IMG/VR virus record: IMGVR_UViG_2778261571_000004
Origin: a virus
Taxonomy: Duplodnaviria; Heunggongvirae; Uroviricota; Caudoviricetes
Reading direction: 5' to 3' (one strand)
DNA length: 64,000 bases
Shown here: piece after piece, positions 3,118-46,098 of the stretch
How positions within the stretch are numbered: the stretch's first letter is position 1
How the letters are laid out: each line of letters opens with the position of its first letter
Notes under the pieces: generated by a model
The model's input: only the letters and a program-made list of their open reading frames with translations
Databases searched by the model: none
Told to the model about the DNA's origin: nothing
Position numbers and translations under genes: made by a program

Positions 3118-3400
3118 TTTTAATTCCTCGTTTGTTTTCGATGTGATAATTATCGCTGAATGAAATAGGCTAAAAAGAAGATTTATAAGGCTACTATCTG
3201 GAAGTAAGGCAAAGTGTTGTCATTTAAGGCCACCAATGCTGATGGCCTTAATAATTATCGCCCGATTACGCTAAGGATCTTTTCCTCAACTGATTTGTTG
3301 TTGCGACTAAACTGCCTTGCGTATCTGATGACAGAAGAGGCGTTTCGCTTTCTGACCATCTCGGCTCTTTCCTTCAGGCGTTTCTTGAAATCGCCCATAT

Positions 3401-3892: not shown

Positions 3893-4288
3893 TTAAGCGA
3901 ATACGCTTTCAGGGATTAAGGTGTCGGCAGGAATGCCAGAGGTAATGCGCAGACCGTACTGGCCAATCCAGGTGGTGCTGGTGTTCAGGCTGGAGGCGAA
4001 TACGGTGTTAACCATATTCATCATGGTTTCAAACACCTCTTCATCAACCTGGCGGAAGTAGTTCTCGATTTTCAGCAGCAGCGGGTCAGTTGCATCGAGA
4101 ATGGACTGGTATTGAGTCGCGTACTCGCCGTCGGAGTCATCACCTTTACGCACGATCGTACTGGCCTGTACTTCGGCGCCAGTTTCGGTGTTGTACGTAA
4201 CAACGGTGATTTTTGCCACATTCTTACCTTCGGCGGTTTCAGAGGCATAGTAAACATCAACTGTCAGTTTTTCGCGTTTAATGGTCAT
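3893..4288 (-). CDS. hypothetical protein (start at Met23 of track ORF 3893..4354)
   Basis: GGAGAG SD before Met23; motif-2 palindrome and an upstream-gene terminator precede it. Confidence 0.5.
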   Translation of the reverse strand: MTIKREKLTVDVYYASETAEGKNVAKITVVTYNTETGAEVQASTIVRKGDDSDGEYATQYQSILDATDPLLLKIENYFRQVDEEVFETMMNMVNTVFASSLNTSTTWIGQYGLRITSGIPADTLIPESVFA

Positions 4289-39265: not shown

Positions 39266-39519
39266 GTGTTTTTCCTTTGTGGTTATTTTGATACAAATTC
39301 TAAGAGCAATGAGGAGGTAAACAACTATGCATAACGGTATGTTAGGAATGAAACGAGCGCCTTAATATACAAAATTTATAAGTAAGTATATACCTATTTA
39401 TCGTGGCGTAACTTTGCTTGTCTGTATGACTAAAAATAAGACAGGATCACTGTAGAACGCTATGAGAGCTATTTTGAGGGGGCGTAGATTCTATCTACGC
39501 CAATATACGATCTGGAGGG

Positions 39520-40164
39520 TTACAGCGCGTCAGTGGGCTTTTTACGCGCTGCGTTTATGCTTATGACGCCAGCTTTTGGACGTGGGTCAACAAGGTTAAG
39601 CTCTTCTTCGCTGTGGTATTCGAGGTCGAACTCACGTTTTACGTGTCTGATGTAGATTGCGGTGAGCAGGCTATCTTTGGTCAGAAAGTGTCCGTAGGAT
39701 TTGCGGATCACTTCTTCTACCTTCTCGATTTTCTCACCACCCATACAGAGATGATTAAACCGGCTGTGTTTCCGCAACATTTCGTCTACTGGGCCTGAGT
39801 AAACCTTGTCTACTTTCCCAAAACGGATGATTTTCCCTGTGTCTGCGGATACGAGGCAAATCAGCTTGTCTGGTGATAAACGATCTCGCCACGTCATACC
39901 TGAACGGAGTGTGTTGAAGTAGGGAGCATCCAATCCGATGATCGGTTTACGAAATGCGAGTAATGGAACGTACCTGATGCAACTGTTTAAATGAAAATTC
40001 ACACCAGCCTTATCAAGTTTAATTCTGGTTTCGTAGATCGGGCACTTCGCCGCTATACCGCAGATGTCACAAAGCAACTTCTGCTTATTCAGGTTGGAAT
40101 TTGATTCGATAGTGTAGGAGCCGTCTTCAAGACGACGAACCCAGCGCGTGCGTTTTAGATCCAT
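39520..40164 (-). CDS. hypothetical protein, divergent from rep
   Basis: 214-aa ORF. Confidence 0.5.
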   Translation of the reverse strand: MDLKRTRWVRRLEDGSYTIESNSNLNKQKLLCDICGIAAKCPIYETRIKLDKAGVNFHLNSCIRYVPLLAFRKPIIGLDAPYFNTLRSGMTWRDRLSPDKLICLVSADTGKIIRFGKVDKVYSGPVDEMLRKHSRFNHLCMGGEKIEKVEEVIRKSYGHFLTKDSLLTAIYIRHVKREFDLEYHSEEELNLVDPRPKAGVISINAARKKPTDAL

Positions 40165-40363
40165 ATGTCATTTTTCTGTGATTGTTAGCCGAGGCAACGA
40201 TAACCCACCAGGTGCGCCGAAGGTAGTAAATGCCTGTTTTAATTATTCACATATCCACAGGATAGATCCTAATAAAGAGATCCATAGATAGATCCTTGTA
40301 TAGATCAAATAAGATCCCCGATCGCTGTAAGCCGCGCCACGACTGGTCTGAAGCCATGTTCAT

Positions 40364-40467
40364 GTATGCTGCCAGCGGTAATTGATAGTCTGTCAACGGT
40401 TCGCCGTATGCTGCCAACTGTTTTTGGTATGCTGCCAGCGGCAAATCAAGTATGCTGTCAGCGGTTG
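40364..40467. repeat. iterons upstream of rep (about 5 copies of GTATGCTGYCAGCGGT-like 16-mer), approximate
   Basis: Direct repeats read in sequence. Confidence 0.7.
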
Positions 40468-40485
40468 AATGACAAAGGTGTCCAC

Positions 40486-41580
40486 ATGTCCACAAAAAAT
40501 AAAAAAGGTAAAAATAACAAAGAAGTAGAAGATAATCTCGACAACTTTGAAGAAGGCTCCCTTGAATTGTACACAGGGGAACTTGTCCCTAATAGCAACA
40601 ATACAGTCCAACCAATTGCGTTGATGCGGCTGGGGTTGTTCGTGCCCACGCTCAAGGGTACAAAATACAGCAAGCGTAACAAGCCAAATGAGATTGATGC
40701 TTCAAAGGAGCTTGTTCAGCTCGAAGTAGCCCGTTCTGAAGGCTATTCCGATATCAAGATAACCGGTCCTCGTCTCGACATGGATCATGATTTCAAAACG
40801 TGGGTGGGCGTTGTGCGTTCGCTGGCAGAATACGGCGAACCTAACGGTCGTGTCGAGTTAAGCATCACGAAATTTGCGAAGTTTTGTGGCTATCCATCGT
40901 CACAGATCCGCAAAACACTCCGCGACCGGCTTACAAACAGTCTTTTGAAGATCATGCGTACAACTCTGTCTTTCCAGAGAACGTATGAAGAAAAGAACGT
41001 CGACGGCTCTAACAAGATCTCGCTTCTGATGGTGCACCTCATCAATAGCGTGGACTACAACGAGCAGAAAGATACGGTGGTGTTCTATGCAGAACCGAAG
41101 CTGGCCGAACTATATCGCTTTGACCATAAGGTTCTTTTGCAGTTAAAGGTTATCAATAAGCTACCACGCAAAGAAACAGCACAGGCTCTGTACACCTTCA
41201 TCGAAAGTCTTCCAACCAAGCCTGCGCCGGTATCGCTTGCTCGATTGCGTGCGCGACTCAATTTGAGTAGCAGGAATGTCAGCTCGCAGAATCAGACTAT
41301 ACGCAACGGCTTAAAAGCTCTCCAAGATTTGGGTTATCTCGAATACAGCGAGATTAAGCGTGGGCGGTCGATCTATATCCAGATTCACAGCCGCAATCCA
41401 AAACTCAAAGTCGCACCGCCAAAACCTGAAGACATCGAACCCAAAAAACCAGATGAGAAAGCCGGGGAAATTGATGCCAAACAGAACATTATCAATAAGA
41501 TAACCGAACTTTCGCAGAATTTGACGCCTGAAAATATCAAGATGATTGAGATCCTTTCCAATAGTCTCAAACTGCTTTGA
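40486..41580 (+). CDS. replication initiator protein (iteron-binding Rep)
   Basis: Gene flanked on both sides by iteron arrays; AAGGTG SD before Met41 of the track ORF; basic protein. Confidence 0.65.
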   Translation: MSTKNKKGKNNKEVEDNLDNFEEGSLELYTGELVPNSNNTVQPIALMRLGLFVPTLKGTKYSKRNKPNEIDASKELVQLEVARSEGYSDIKITGPRLDMDHDFKTWVGVVRSLAEYGEPNGRVELSITKFAKFCGYPSSQIRKTLRDRLTNSLLKIMRTTLSFQRTYEEKNVDGSNKISLLMVHLINSVDYNEQKDTVVFYAEPKLAELYRFDHKVLLQLKVINKLPRKETAQALYTFIESLPTKPAPVSLARLRARLNLSSRNVSSQNQTIRNGLKALQDLGYLEYSEIKRGRSIYIQIHSRNPKLKVAPPKPEDIEPKKPDEKAGEIDAKQNIINKITELSQNLTPENIKMIEILSNSLKLL

Positions 41581-42112
41581 TATGCTGTCAGCGGTGAAAT
41601 GTATGCTATCAGCGGCTATTTTTCTGAAAAGTATGCTGTGAACGGTTAAAGATATGCTACCAGCGGTATAGTGAGATAAACGTATGCTGTGAGCGGTAAA
41701 TCATCTATCACCACTCAATGCTCTTTTATACCTCCCCAGTGGTTACTAACCTCGAAGAGTGCATTCCATATAGGTTTGCGCTCACTAACATTCTATTCCC
41801 ATTGCGCTGATTACTTGTAGTGAAAGGTATTTATTGCCTGCTGCTCCCTGATAGAACGTATGCTGTCAGCGGTGTTTTATTGAGGAATTTTTGTTTGGAT
41901 ATGCTATCAGCGGTAATTAATGGCATATGTCAGACCTTCGTATGCTGCCAGCGGTAATTTTGTTCTGGTTATACCCATACCGGTACACATTATTCATGCA
42001 ATGTCTTAAGTATGCTGTCAGCGGTAAAAAATCGAGTAAAGTATGCTGTGAGCGGTGAGATAGACTCTCGATATGCTATCAGCGGCAGTTGATTGTGTAT
42101 GCTGTCAGCGGT
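41581..42112. repeat. iterons downstream of rep (about 13 copies in two clusters separated by an AT-rich segment), approximate
   Basis: tatgctgtcagcggt and variants at about 41581, 41601, 41631, 41652, 41682, 41858, 41899, 41940, 42010, 42040, 42071, 42097. Confidence 0.7.
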
Positions 42113-42159
42113 GACGACTATGAAATATGACTGCGGAACGTGCCGCAGTCAGTTTGCAT

Positions 42160-42372
42160 TTAGTGTATTTTCTTCAACAGACCCCAAAGTGTTCCGGCTT
42201 TTGTAGTCAGTTTTCCTGTTTCTGGATCGTACATACGCCATTCACGCCGCTGGTGGACGATATACCCATCTTCACGTTCCAGACGCTCAAGAATGCCAGG
42301 CTGCTTGAAACCCTTAGCACGCCAGTATCCGCTTGTTTTCTCGATTTCCAGACCTGCCAGTGTTAATGCCAT
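42160..42372 (-). CDS. small hypothetical protein (70 aa)
   Basis: Start overlaps stop of upstream gene (TAATG). Confidence 0.4.
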   Translation of the reverse strand: MALTLAGLEIEKTSGYWRAKGFKQPGILERLEREDGYIVHQRREWRMYDPETGKLTTKAGTLWGLLKKIH

Positions 42373-42707
42373 TATCCAACCTCCTTGCAGTCATCGAAAA
42401 GGTAGCTTTGCTGAGAAGCGTGAACGCCATAGAAGCCCTTGTATTTGTTGTATACGAAGTGGTCTTCTCCGACGCCGGTTAATTTGCCATTACGATTTGT
42501 GAGATATGGGGATGACAATACTCGATCGTCACGCACAACATAGAACTGGTCGCCGCTGTCTACGACCATCGCTCCATATGGTGCTTTTATGACGTCGGTA
42601 AGAGCGCCATTCTTAACGTCGGCTACAGACATTTCACACTGATAAACAGTGGTGTCGGCCACAACGATCGAGGAAAGGAACAACAGAGCGAATGGGATGG
42701 CCTTCAT
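42372..42707 (-). CDS. predicted secreted protein (signal peptide)
   Basis: N-terminus MKAIPFALLFLSSIVVA. Confidence 0.5.
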   Translation of the reverse strand: MKAIPFALLFLSSIVVADTTVYQCEMSVADVKNGALTDVIKAPYGAMVVDSGDQFYVVRDDRVLSSPYLTNRNGKLTGVGEDHFVYNKYKGFYGVHASQQSYLFDDCKEVG

Positions 42708-42883
42708 GCTGCCACCTCTTTGATTACATCAAATGCTGAATTAAATACGAGCACGATAGCCAAAGCGTTTATGACTACGTCGTTCACCGGGGAAAAGACT
42801 TTACGAATGACACCAGTGAAAATGCAGTCGATGACAAAAGCTATTGAAACGATGAGTAACAAGTATTCAATAAAAATCTTCAT
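42704..42883 (-). CDS. small membrane protein (about 59 aa), approximate
   Basis: Hydrophobic product; stop overlaps ATG of 42372..42707 (ATGA); not in ORF track. Confidence 0.35.
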   Translation of the reverse strand: MKIFIEYLLLIVSIAFVIDCIFTGVIRKVFSPVNDVVINALAIVLVFNSAFDVIKEVAA

Positions 42884-43758: not shown

Positions 43759-46098
43759 TTACTCTTCTACTGACTCGGTGGGGGTATCTTTTGCTCTCCG
43801 GTCATCGATTGCCTGCAAAGCCGCAATGATTTCAGCCAGTGGCTTCTCCCGATACATCTCGACGATCTGCGATTTGGTGTATTTCTTGTCACCAATTTCA
43901 ACTCGCCCGCTGGCGTTCTTTGGCAGGTATCCTTCTTCCAGCATGTACTCGACGAGCGATTCGATAACGTCGAGGCCACGAGTAGGATCGAAGTAGAATT
44001 TCCAGGTGCATTTGCCATACGGTGGTGCAACTTTGTTTTTGATGCATTCTGCGCCTACGTCCTGGCCGATCTTCTCTTTACCATCCTTCATCACCGATGC
44101 ACCAAGACGGATACGTACAGAAGCGTAGAACTTCGGTGAATCTCCACCTGGCGACGTAGTAGGGTCGCCAAACATTACACCGATTTTTGTGCGAACCTGA
44201 TTCAAGAAGATGATGCAGGCGTTGTATTTGCGTGCCCACAAAGCCAGAGTAGGGAAGTTCGCACTCGTCGCACGAGCCAGTGCCGTATTGTCGTTCATGT
44301 TTAGCTGATCTTTGTCTTTGGCTGTGCCTTCAGCCATCTTTTCGAACTTCTCGGCTTTGGAGTTCGGAACCATAGACGCAAGAGAGTCAGCCACGATACA
44401 GATAGGTGCTGATTCGGGGATAAGCTCTTCATCACGAACCAATTTAAGTATTGTGCCGATCAACTCTACAGAGTCTTCGAAGGTATCTGGCTGCTTGTAT
44501 ACCCACTGACCGTCATCCTCATCTGCGTTCAGGCCATTGGCTACAGCCAGGCCAACGTCAAAACTGTTTTCATGATCGAGGAATACCGCCAGACCATCTT
44601 GTTTTTGAGCGGAGATCATCGCTGCTGTTGCAAGGAATGTGTTGTGGCTGATAATCCCGTTAGACCAGAAAGAGTGTGTTTCCGGCATCGCTACGTCGAA
44701 CGTTGGTGCTTCACCTTCCTCAATAGCCACGACTTCGTCGTAGAACAAGTTAGAGCCAATTACCGCTGCCAGTTGTGCAAACAGATGCTCGTTAAAACGA
44801 TTCTTTCTGCCAATGAAGGAGACATAGATTTCTCGCAGTTTGTCTATTCCGACACGATCGCCGCGGCCAATAACGTGGTCTACCAGAGCGTAGTCTTCAC
44901 GGGTGGTCTTGGTGAGCGACTCGTAGAGTGATTTCACTAAGCCGCTGATGTGCGGAACATAGCCTGAGTAAGTGCGGTCAAAACCAATGTCCCGTTTGGT
45001 TGCCACTGATAAACGTGCCGGAGATTCGAAACCAATCGTTGACAGAAAAAGGTCGTAATTAGAGCCACTGAATGACAGCCGGTAATATGTATTTTCATAA
45101 CCCGCGACGTGTTTTTCAGAGATAGTTGACGTAATCCCCAGATTCAGGAGCATGAGGCGAATTTGCTGTAGCAGCAGCCCACTCGCGCTCACAACCTCAA
45201 TGCAGCGACCATCATTGACGTGGCATTCCAGCTCAAAGTAGCCGCGAAGGAATGCAATTTGAGCCTCGCTATTGGCGCGACGCACACTCAACGGAACCTG
45301 CTTGCCAGCAGCTTTCTCATACTCCAGACCATATTCTTTAAAAAGCAGCGAACGCACCTCTTTGCTAAACAGCACATGGTCTTCCGAGCCGTTATGTTTT
45401 CTCGTAACTGGCATCTTGTCTGATACCAGCGAAATGAGGCGGTAGTACTCATCCTTGATGAAAGGATCTGTGTTAGAAAAATTCACTGAATTTTCAGAGG
45501 CCACGTATCCGTCAGCAATTAAATAGCCCATCAGTTTTGCGATATTGGCATCCAGGTGCTGATCGCCGAATTGATGTGTGCCAACCATTGAAGGAATCGT
45601 GTCGCCTACACTGATTTTTTCAGCATGTCGCCAGACGACATTACCTAAGTCGTCAACCACACGGATTGGGTGACGGAACGTAGCCTCGATATAACCGCCT
45701 GATGCCAGCTTAATACGCTTGAATTTGCGACGGTTGTTCCATGTCAGGTGTGAGGTCTTCTCTATCACGCCATTTTCATTGATGAGTCCAACGTTATGCT
45801 CTACATCGCGAGTAGTGCATGTCGCTTTGTACCCTTCAATCTCAAACAACTCTTTCACTGTTACCATTCCACGCTCCGTCAGCAGCATGGTGTCTGCGGT
45901 AACACATTTCCCCGCGCTTGGTGGCCCGAATACTTCTACGATACGACCACATGGGAAACCGCCATCGTAACGACCGGAAATAGCTTTGTTTAACGGAGGA
46001 AAGCCTGTGTCAATCCAATGAGTTACTTTCTGAATTTCGTCGTTGCTACCGATTTTCTTTTTCAGAGCAAGTGCCAGTGCGGATTTTCCTTTTGCCAT
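43759..46098 (-). CDS. RecA-family recombinase interrupted by an in-frame intein
   Basis: N-extein ...GRIVEVFGPPSAGK (Walker A) then Cys; C-extein resumes TFLATAAM...; exteins total 357 aa, RecA-sized. Confidence 0.8.
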   Translation of the reverse strand: MAKGKSALALALKKKIGSNDEIQKVTHWIDTGFPPLNKAISGRYDGGFPCGRIVEVFGPPSAGKCVTADTMLLTERGMVTVKELFEIEGYKATCTTRDVEHNVGLINENGVIEKTSHLTWNNRRKFKRIKLASGGYIEATFRHPIRVVDDLGNVVWRHAEKISVGDTIPSMVGTHQFGDQHLDANIAKLMGYLIADGYVASENSVNFSNTDPFIKDEYYRLISLVSDKMPVTRKHNGSEDHVLFSKEVRSLLFKEYGLEYEKAAGKQVPLSVRRANSEAQIAFLRGYFELECHVNDGRCIEVVSASGLLLQQIRLMLLNLGITSTISEKHVAGYENTYYRLSFSGSNYDLFLSTIGFESPARLSVATKRDIGFDRTYSGYVPHISGLVKSLYESLTKTTREDYALVDHVIGRGDRVGIDKLREIYVSFIGRKNRFNEHLFAQLAAVIGSNLFYDEVVAIEEGEAPTFDVAMPETHSFWSNGIISHNTFLATAAMISAQKQDGLAVFLDHENSFDVGLAVANGLNADEDDGQWVYKQPDTFEDSVELIGTILKLVRDEELIPESAPICIVADSLASMVPNSKAEKFEKMAEGTAKDKDQLNMNDNTALARATSANFPTLALWARKYNACIIFLNQVRTKIGVMFGDPTTSPGGDSPKFYASVRIRLGASVMKDGKEKIGQDVGAECIKNKVAPPYGKCTWKFYFDPTRGLDVIESLVEYMLEEGYLPKNASGRVEIGDKKYTKSQIVEMYREKPLAEIIAALQAIDDRRAKDTPTESVEE
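44641..45906 (-). mobile_element. intein (about 422 aa) with LAGLIDADG homing-endonuclease domain inside the recA-like P-loop
   Basis: Starts CVTADTMLL, ends ...ISHN followed by Thr+1; LMGYLIADGYV and FLRGYFELECHV LAGLIDADG-type motifs; coordinates from residue counting. Confidence 0.7.

Follow-up and report, generated by a model that had tools for sequence, protein, structure and literature searches.

Anatomy of a probable plasmid-prophage replicon of pECOH89-type SSU5-supergroup phage-plasmids, related to P1 oriR-repA-incA and RepFIB

The rep locus of the 64,000-nucleotide stretch of virus DNA analyzed here (the window) is, with high confidence, the plasmid-prophage replicon of a pECOH89-type phage-plasmid of the SSU5 supergroup. 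We regard it as a diverged homologue of both P1 oriR-repA-incA and the RepFIB replicon of F/P307, with a Rep/iteron copy-control mechanism proposed by analogy with P1. PlasmidFinder names this replicon IncFIB(H89-PhagePlasmid), and SSU5-group phage-plasmids have been typed as IncFIB (PMC7969092; 10.1101/2025.09.12.675607). The DNA is 98.2% identical to pECOH89 (NC_023916), 98.9% to phage PhiR41_1, and 99.3% to p503440_100, the flanks of which are collinear with most of the window. A literature search found no experiment on the present replicon type, no paper joining SSU5-type elements with iterons, and nothing relevant on PhiR41_1. The pECOH89 announcement mentions RepA only, and a heteroresistance preprint was set aside as a source since it concerns an unrelated 49-kb phage-plasmid family. 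The features of the replicon and its neighbors are collected in Table 1.

Table 1. Features of the replicon and its immediate neighbors, in window coordinates
Feature	Coordinates	Strand	Basis
Conserved 214-aa ORF, left backbone neighbor	39520..40164	-	ORF list; oriented away from the origin
Two tandem DnaA boxes, TTATTCACA and ATATCCACA	40243..40259	+	Pattern scan; each 8/9 versus TTATCCACA
AT-rich block with six GATC (Dam) sites	40260..40323		Pattern scan, GC profile, P1 alignment
GC-rich spacer between GATC block and iterons (…GCCGCGCCACGACTGG…)	40324..40363		GC profile, alignment
Origin iterons, incC equivalent	40364..40469	+	Repeat scan; five slots
Putative autoregulated rep promoter, within iterons 3 to 5	40421..40453	+	Position relative to P1
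Two weak tandem DnaA-box-like sites, GTGTCCACA and ATGTCCACA	40478..40494	+	Pattern scan; 7/9 each
rep, 364-aa iteron-binding initiator of the P1 RepA/RepFIB family, tandem winged-helix fold (predicted)	40486..41580	+	Homology, predicted fold
Cluster A of the downstream iterons, five direct copies	41580..41701	+	Repeat scan
Conserved non-iteron two-box element, in the 156-bp inter-cluster spacer	41735..41797	+	Conservation
Cluster B of the downstream iterons, seven direct copies and one weak candidate	41858..42116	+	Repeat scan
GC-rich hairpin (TGACTGCGG…CCGCAGTCA), terminator-like on both strands	42128..42151		Terminator scan
70-aa Cre-associated (Cra-like) gene, right backbone neighbor	42160..42372	-	ORF list

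The distribution of the replicon bears out the earlier proposal that the element lives as a plasmid. The replicon is present in 120 of 5,426 complete E. coli genomes, where all 186 matches lie on plasmids and none on a chromosome, and 188 plasmids in PLSDB carry it. None of the PLSDB plasmids whose typing was read is mobilizable, and rep_cluster_488 is the sole replicon typed by MOB-suite on the 64- to 113-kb phage-like plasmids among them. In E. albertii, degraded derivatives of 62 to 64 kb still carry this rep and survive as circular plasmids; in the one examined, a shortened dnaE and IS insertions were seen in the first 50 kb, and no capsid, tail, or terminase genes were found in that portion. 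The replicon also occurs in non-phage IncF mosaics, in one of which only three downstream iterons are left, beside IS21. A plasmid lifestyle is therefore well supported. In Cyrano, a backbone relative, 5.5 copies per cell have been measured (PMC9928086).

The product of rep belongs to a known family of plasmid initiators. A profile comparison of Rep, proposed in the preliminary description, matched Pfam Rep3_N (E = 3.9e-9; 37.5 bits against a cutoff of 22.4), which places the protein in an initiator family. The protein shares 46% identity with P1 RepA over 278 aa (E = 4e-86), 52% with F RepFIB RepA over 317 aa (E = 2e-110), and 48% with SSU5 RepA, and tblastn with Rep also matches repA of P1 and P7. 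No significant sequence similarity to F RepE/ori2 was detected (E = 0.26). The label “P1/F-like,” applied earlier to the replicon, thus stands for P1 and, on the F side, for RepFIB, but not for RepE. Because searches with the Rep sequence against the PDB and NCBIfam returned no match, we turned to a fold search. The AlphaFold model of Rep has a mean pLDDT of 70.7, with block means mostly between 75 and 92 over residues 71 to 300. Foldseek matched this model to RctB domains 2-3 (E = 1e-7), RepE (7e-5), MSBI1.176 WH1 (4e-4), pi (9e-3), and TrfA (4e-2), and the fold predicted for Rep is that of the RepE/pi/RctB initiators.

Translation of rep most plausibly begins at 40486, where AAAGG lies 7 nt upstream and where most homologues also begin. 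We rejected a 404-aa model of Rep starting at 40366, whose 40 additional residues are encoded by iteron DNA. The Cronobacter ATG that corresponds to 40366 lies 121 nt upstream and is not in the reading frame of rep. The N terminus of the RefSeq Rep is probably over-extended through the iterons.

Upstream of rep, the DnaA boxes, GATC block, and GC-rich spacer form an origin core with 77% DNA identity to P1 oriR over 118 bp. The outer pair of DnaA boxes lines up with the segment of P1 oriR annotated as binding DnaA (K02380 729-746), and the same pair is found in F RepFIB. The GATC block, with sites at 40265, 40279, 40291, 40303, 40313, and 40320, is the densest such cluster in the window (average, 3.9 per kb) and corresponds in the alignment to the Dam sites annotated in P1 oriR; five of its six sites sit in heptamers of the form (T/G/A)AGATC(C/A). 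GC content is 31.6% at 40260-40316 (5th percentile of the window), and by comparison with P1 the strands probably open in this AT-rich portion of the replicon. The GC content of positions 40317-40363 is 59.6% (98th percentile), and alignment revealed that the GC-rich spacer is kept in P1 and Klebsiella. At the inner end of the origin, the two weak DnaA-box-like sites overlap the rep start codon. The P1 counterpart at this end is a DnaA box, CTATCCACA, and we infer a DnaA role for the 7/9 sites as well. A rep promoter may be embedded in iterons 3 to 5. Its candidate hexamers, TTGGTA and AAGTAT separated by 18 nt, align with the annotated -35 and -10 of P1 repA (K02380 904-909 and 928-933). These hexamers and an alternative pair, TTTTTG/TCAAGT, are weak consensus matches, and a consensus promoter scan did not call the candidates. 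An Rfam search of positions 39400-42800 at E values up to 1 returned no match to a regulatory RNA.

The iterons that flank rep are real repeats, far above chance level. A scan of the window for GTATGCTGYCAGCGGT with up to three mismatches gave 20 matches where 0.62 was expected, and the maximum in any of 100 shuffles was 2. Sixteen strong copies, all on the + strand, lie within 40364-42116, and a repeat-family search grouped the iterons into one 20-nt family. The preliminary description had counted about five copies before rep and about 13 after it in two clusters, which agrees with the five phased slots, one of them degenerate, that we find upstream and with the 12 firm copies downstream, or 13 if a weak candidate at 41970 (9/15 core positions) is included. 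The upstream slots begin at 40364, 40385 (the degenerate one, in phase), 40406, 40427, and 40450, at spacings of 21, 21, 21, and 23 bp. This spacing recurs unchanged in each of the seven relatives that were mapped in detail, and every slot is occupied by a good copy in the Klebsiella and Cronobacter relatives. In a survey of 75 IMG/VR loci, most have five upstream copies, with three or four where slots are degenerate. Small ORFs that span the iteron arrays were treated as spurious. A 19-nt inverted match that links 40398-40416 (iteron 3 and adjoining sequence) to a stretch inside rep (40823-40841) is probably fortuitous or recent; it is present in near-identical relatives only and absent from Klebsiella, Salmonella, and Cronobacter.

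Downstream of rep, the copies of cluster A begin at 41580, 41601, 41631, 41652, and 41682 (spacing of 21, 30, 21, and 30 bp), the first of them overlapping or abutting the rep stop codon. Those of cluster B begin at 41858, 41899, 41940, 42010, 42041, 42071, and 42097, spaced by 41, 41, (30, 40), 31, 30, and 26 bp, where the bracketed values take in the weak candidate. The downstream total varies from 8 to 12 among the 75 surveyed loci, and PhiR41_1 has lost three cluster B copies through an 87-bp iteron-to-iteron deletion. The segment between the clusters (41702-41857; 156 bp) had been described as AT rich. This is not borne out, as its GC content of 42.9% (25th percentile) is no lower than that of the iteron arrays (41 to 43%).

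The replicon sits between two conserved backbone genes. The 214-aa ORF on its left has no Pfam match, and a 645-bp homologue is annotated beside rep in E. coli, Salmonella, Cronobacter, Enterobacter, Klebsiella, and SSU5 records. On its right, the gene annotated as Cra-like in the SSU5, pJN2-26, and Cyrano records converges on the replicon, and the hairpin lies between this gene and the last iteron; in a Salmonella relative, the stem of the hairpin is conserved in the alignment and the loop is different. Homology to the SSU5 backbone (77%) spans 39530-40324, stops at 40324, and restarts at 42162. No par operon adjoins the replicon, and tblastn with P1 ParA and ParB found no match in the whole window. 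A candidate small ATPase pair (putative par) is present elsewhere on full-length relatives, outside the window.

The spacer between the two downstream clusters contains a conserved element that is not an iteron. It consists of box 1, CCCAGTGGTTACTAACC, and box 2, GGTTTGCGCTCACTAAC, about 40 bp apart. The element is kept in Salmonella, Cronobacter, and Enterobacter although the flanks diverge, and it is present in every surveyed IMG/VR locus with a Rep identity of at least 85%. SSU5 has it in inverted orientation (75% over 64 nt; E = 3e-4), so that replicon types with unrelated iterons and Reps only 48% identical have it in common. Further copies were found neither in the window nor in one full-length relative. 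We considered a palindromic operator of the form GTTAGT-N4-ACTAAC and rejected it, as the window copy is degenerate and there are no extra copies above chance; the element is not an operator reused elsewhere on the phage-plasmid. Box 2 forms a clean GTTAGT-N4-ACTAAC palindrome in some lineages.

The two-box element could be a functionless, decayed relic of SSU5-type iterons, left behind when one specificity module replaced another. We take this explanation seriously but lean against it. The two halves of the SSU5 iteron are found in the boxes when these are read as reverse complements, TAACCACTG in box 1 and TAGTGAG in box 2, and the iteron/rep cassette (40325-42161) is the part that differs between backbones otherwise 73 to 77% identical. 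Against it stands the conservation of the element in Escherichia, Salmonella, Cronobacter, Enterobacter, and Klebsiella, between flanks that diverge. Its retention in SSU5 as a unit separate from that replicon's own iterons and the clean palindromic box 2 of some lineages likewise argue against decay. A more speculative proposal, to which we assign a low probability, is that the element is an undescribed cis-regulatory site of SSU5-supergroup replicons, which may bind a dimeric host or phage factor linking copy control to phage state; together with the 8 to 12 iterons, it would make copy number tunable.

The parallels with P1 and RepFIB suggest how origin firing, its dependence on Dam and DnaA, and copy control might proceed. 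Rep monomers would bind the five phased origin iterons (40364-40469) and host DnaA the flanking boxes; the duplex would open in the AT-rich GATC block (40260-40323), methylated by Dam, and loading of the host replisome would follow. The element encodes a DnaB-like helicase, a primase, and a Pol III alpha subunit of its own, and the use of the host replisome in plasmid mode is therefore an assumption. Rep would repress its own promoter inside the iterons. The 12 or 13 downstream iterons (41580-42116) would titrate Rep and pair with the origin iterons by handcuffing, the accepted mode of control in iteron plasmids, including P1 (PMC6312765). Titration and handcuffing together would give low copy number and incompatibility, and the downstream array would be the locus of both.

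Alternatively, the downstream arrays, cluster B above all, might not be a copy-control locus, having arisen by neutral duplication of iterons or serving as a centromere-like or silencing array. The variation from 8 to 12 copies among relatives, including the three missing from PhiR41_1, is consistent with this idea, as are the Klebsiella types that have no iteron cluster after the two-box element, the IncF mosaic with just three downstream copies next to IS21, and the failure to identify a partition site near rep. We nevertheless judge it improbable. At least eight downstream copies, always direct and starting from the rep stop, are found in 75 of 75 phage-plasmid loci. The spacings here are near whole helical turns (21, 30-31, and 41 bp), as in P1 incA, and putative par genes are located elsewhere on the element. 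Moreover, because the downstream copies have the sequence of the origin iterons, Rep should bind them and be titrated.

Least credible of all is the suggestion that the iteron-rep module is a phage lytic origin, like lambda O/ori, with plasmid maintenance left to another function: although the phage family is functional (the record of PhiR41_1 is that of a phage, with E. coli K-12 as its host, and Cyrano virions are produced [PMC9928086]) and the element carries helicase, primase, and polymerase genes, Rep is homologous to the plasmid-mode initiators P1 RepA and RepFIB RepA, this is the sole MOB-suite-typed replicon on the phage-like plasmids examined, rep is kept in the 62- to 64-kb degraded plasmids, with no virion genes in the 50 kb examined of one of them, and the replicon occurs in non-phage IncF mosaics. 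The reading of the module as a plasmid-prophage replicon also has a precedent. In P1, the homologous replicon serves the plasmid and a separate replicon serves lytic growth.

Because its type, family, and plasmid lifestyle are already known and catalogued, the replicon answers no open question. It explains how a phage family that disseminates CTX-M-15 and other resistance genes is maintained in plasmid form in about 2% of E. coli with complete genome sequences. Its anatomy, as annotated here, offers candidate sites at which to cure the element by incompatibility, a fragment with defined limits for building mini-replicon vectors, and a correction of the RefSeq Rep start codon, together with a warning that iterons are mis-annotated as att sites or small ORFs.

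The incC-repA-incA layout of P1, recognized in the preliminary description, reflects homology, with 46% identity between the Reps and 77% between the origin cores. The two replicons share the order of two DnaA boxes, GATC heptamers, GC spacer, five iterons spaced by about 21 bp, rep, and downstream iterons. P1 incC has five repeats spaced by about 21 bp as in the origin here, incA likewise begins at the repA stop (K02380 1866), and both elements are phages with a plasmid-prophage life. As previously noted, the iteron sequences differ, being GTATGCTGYCAGCGGTAA here and GATGTGTGCTGGAGGGAAA in P1. P1 incA has nine copies in both orientations, whereas the 12 or 13 copies here form two clusters and are all direct, so the geometry of control may differ. 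In addition, the array here contains a non-iteron element, Rep has 30-aa N-terminal and 55-aa C-terminal extensions relative to P1 RepA, and no counterpart of the parAB-parS that follows incA in P1 is present after cluster B. P1 is a P1-like myovirus and the phage here is an SSU5-like siphovirus.

The closest characterized initiator is the RepFIB RepA of F/P307, which has in common with Rep a linker and a short helical C-terminal tail. The RepFIB origin of F has the same DnaA boxes, GATC block, and five iterons, and its repeats also flank repA on both sides. The RepFIB iterons are of the ATAAGCTGTAGTCAGTA type, unlike those here, and specificity and incompatibility therefore probably differ. 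RepFIB is one of several replicons in IncF plasmids, whereas the present replicon is the only one typed, on a phage-plasmid backbone. The RepFIA replicon of F (ori2/incB-repE-incC) has an analogous layout, with iterons flanking the initiator gene; the likeness to its RepE is a predicted fold match only, with no family-level kinship.

The RepA replicon of SSU5, pHCM2, and pLF82 (Cyrano) occupies the same slot, from the 214-aa ORF to the cra-like gene. It has in common with the present replicon the DnaA/GATC origin core (77%, a backbone-level identity), the two-box element, and iterons on both sides of rep. Its Rep is only 48% identical to Rep here (PMC3999498), and its iterons (TAACCACTGTAGTGAGTA) are unrelated to those here. 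The downstream iterons of SSU5 are in both orientations and its origin core is duplicated. Compared with SSU5, the present replicon amounts to a different specificity module on the same backbone.

The locus is very probably a replicon of the P1/RepFIB type, which is its best-supported reading; the individual steps of its mechanism are less certain. Rep matches Pfam Rep3_N above the curated cut-off and, in profile and sequence comparison with the RepA and RepE families, proved to be a RepA homologue. Its identity is 46% with P1 RepA (278 residues aligned; E 4e-86), 52% with RepFIB RepA of F, and 48% with SSU5 RepA; it has no significant sequence similarity to F RepE. Sequence searches of PDB and NCBIfam gave no match. 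An AlphaFold model built with 30 homologues (mean pLDDT, 70.7; core mostly 75-92) had as its best structural matches RctB domains 2-3, RepE, the MSBI1.176 WH1 domain, pi, and TrfA, all of which are iteron-type initiators. Rep and RepFIB-type proteins share a C-terminal linker and short helical tail that P1 RepA lacks.

The RefSeq/PGAP model of Rep is longer, at 404 residues, and starts at 40366, inside iteron 1. Its 40 extra residues (40366-40485; MLPAV…) are translated iterons. The ATG corresponding to 40366 is out of frame with rep in Cronobacter, and the majority of Rep homologues start at the short position. Judging from these sequences, the 404-residue form is probably an annotation artefact.

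Features of the replicon, in window coordinates
Feature	Coordinates	Strand	Description
Two tandem DnaA boxes	40243-40259		Left of iterons; 8/9 match each
GATC cluster	40265-40323		Six sites, densest in window; five in AGATC[C/A] heptamers; 31.6% GC
GC-rich spacer			Between GATC cluster and iterons; 59.6% GC
rep	40486-41580	+	Best read as 364 aa
Downstream cluster A	41580-41701	+	5 iterons; first overlaps rep stop codon
Two-box element	41735-41797		About 63 bp, in inter-cluster spacer; boxes CCCAGTGGTTACTAACC and GGTTTGCGCTCACTAAC
Downstream cluster B	41858-42116	+	7 iterons, plus weak thirteenth candidate at 41970

Searching the 64-kb window for GTATGCTGYCAGCGGT with up to 3 mismatches returned 20 matches against 0.62 expected. 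Sixteen of these are strong plus-strand copies at 40364-42112, the same coordinates as in the preliminary description, and a repeat search grouped the strong copies into a single 20-nt family. About five iterons had been proposed before rep and about 13 after it, in two clusters, and both counts hold. The upstream array has four strong copies and a degenerate in-phase copy at 40385, giving five slots spaced 21, 21, 21, and 23 bp apart; all five slots contain a good copy in the Klebsiella and Cronobacter relatives. Downstream of rep, spacings are close to whole helical turns (21, 30-31, and 41 bp). Only one point of the description did not hold, the AT-rich segment said to separate the downstream clusters: the 156-bp spacer has a GC content of 42.9%, at the window's 25th percentile and no less than that of the iteron arrays. 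Separately, iteron 3 and its 5' flank (40398-40416) have a 19-nt inverted match (18/19) to 40823-40841 within rep, which is probably nonfunctional because only near-identical relatives have it.

Left of the iterons, the DnaA boxes, GATC cluster, and GC-rich spacer follow one another in that order. Over 118 bp they share 77% identity with P1 oriR, and their features line up one by one with the DnaA site and Dam sites marked in the P1 replicon record (K02380); the F RepFIB origin has the same design. A pattern scan found two weaker DnaA-like boxes overlapping the rep start codon.

From the observed layout and homologies, we infer how the replicon would operate. Rep monomers would bind the five origin iterons and DnaA the flanking boxes, with the duplex opening in the AT-rich, Dam-methylated block. 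The downstream iterons would titrate Rep and handcuff the origin, limiting copy number and setting incompatibility. This model draws in part on established work on P1. Titration of Rep and handcuffing by iterons have also been described as copy control (PMC6312765). Rep would in addition repress its own promoter. Weak -35/-10 candidates lie inside the iterons at the position of the annotated P1 repA promoter; because a consensus promoter scan does not call them, we infer autorepression rather than observe it.

In a comparison of 75 IMG/VR loci and several plasmids, the five-slot upstream array was nearly constant, with 3-4 copies detected where slots are degenerate. Downstream iterons number 8 to 12, usually in two clusters, and are direct except for one outlying reverse-strand match in three loci. 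PhiR41_1 has lost three downstream copies through an 87-bp iteron-to-iteron deletion. All surveyed loci whose Rep is at least 85% identical have the two-box element, and in Salmonella, Cronobacter, and Enterobacter it is conserved between flanks that diverge. It is placed after both iteron clusters in Klebsiella and is inverted in SSU5 (E 3e-4). No further copies were found in the window or a full-length relative, and the region matched no Rfam family. The element could serve to bind a factor, or it could be left over from SSU5-type iterons.

The proposal that the element lives as a plasmid is well supported by its distribution. The replicon was found in 120 of 5,426 complete E. coli genomes, with all 186 matches on plasmids and none on a chromosome. 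Of 188 matching PLSDB plasmids, 166, mostly about 100-115 kb, are 98-99% identical to the region, and matches include phage PhiR41_1 and pECOH89 (98.2%), a plasmid described as a phage-like relative of SSU5 and pHCM2 (PMC3999498). Plasmids whose typing was read are nonmobilizable, with rep_cluster_488 as the sole typed replicon; SSU5-group phage-plasmids have been typed as IncFIB (PMC7969092; 10.1101/2025.09.12.675607; PMC8969562). Cyrano, present at 5.5 copies per cell (PMC9928086), shares its backbone with this element but has an SSU5-type Rep. E. albertii plasmids of 62-64 kb retain this rep; one is circular with the H89-type rep as its sole typed replicon, and its first 50 kb has no annotated virion genes, a shortened dnaE, and IS insertions. 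Non-phage IncF mosaics also carry Rep relatives (~80% nucleotide identity) adjoining IS elements, and in one a ParA/ParB pair is located some 2 kb from an H89-like rep.

Over most of its length, the window runs collinear with p503440_100, which carries SSU5-like capsid, tail, and terminase genes and encodes a DnaB-like helicase, a ligase, and a Pol III alpha of its own. Window positions 11635-36532 (~25 kb) have no counterpart in p503440_100, which has IS100 and other insertions/deletions there; the corresponding side of pECAZ155_2 has nrdA, an AAA ATPase, and other genes. The RecA-like gene at 43759-46098 (minus strand; Pfam RecA, Intein_splicing, and LAGLIDADG_3) encodes 779 residues because an intein with a LAGLIDADG endonuclease is inserted. 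PhiR41_1 has the long form, and other close relatives, such as p503440_100 and pECAZ155_2, have a 357-residue intein-free form.

The preliminary observation and its interpretation are thus essentially correct. Since replicon type, family, and plasmid lifestyle are already catalogued, novelty is low; the searchable literature yielded no explicit account of how the iterons of these replicons are arranged, so the fine map, start-codon correction, and two-box element are modest additions.

The likeness to P1 extends to incA, where spacings are likewise near whole helical turns; the nine copies in incA, however, lie in both orientations, whereas the downstream copies here are all direct. The kinship proposed with F is with RepFIB rather than RepE, and no par operon is adjacent. 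To the right, 42160-42372 (minus strand) encodes a homologue of the P1 Cre-associated protein Cra, and many SSU5-like plasmids with the other Rep type share no part of the query except the 41-bp end of this gene. In the record of Klebsiella phage pJN2-26 (L005), two rep-flanking iterons (2753-2772 and 4023-4042) are annotated in GenBank as attR and attL; the direct repeats almost certainly misled a prophage finder. SSU5 (L004) has downstream iterons in both orientations and two copies of the DnaA-box/GATC core (2780-2823 and 3155-3198, 375 bp apart), and iterons follow both copies. Homology to the SSU5 backbone (73-77%) extends to 40324 and picks up again at 42162, and between these limits only short patches within rep match. 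The iterons, rep, and control array thus form a diverged specificity cassette, and the DnaA/GATC core is part of the backbone that both elements share.
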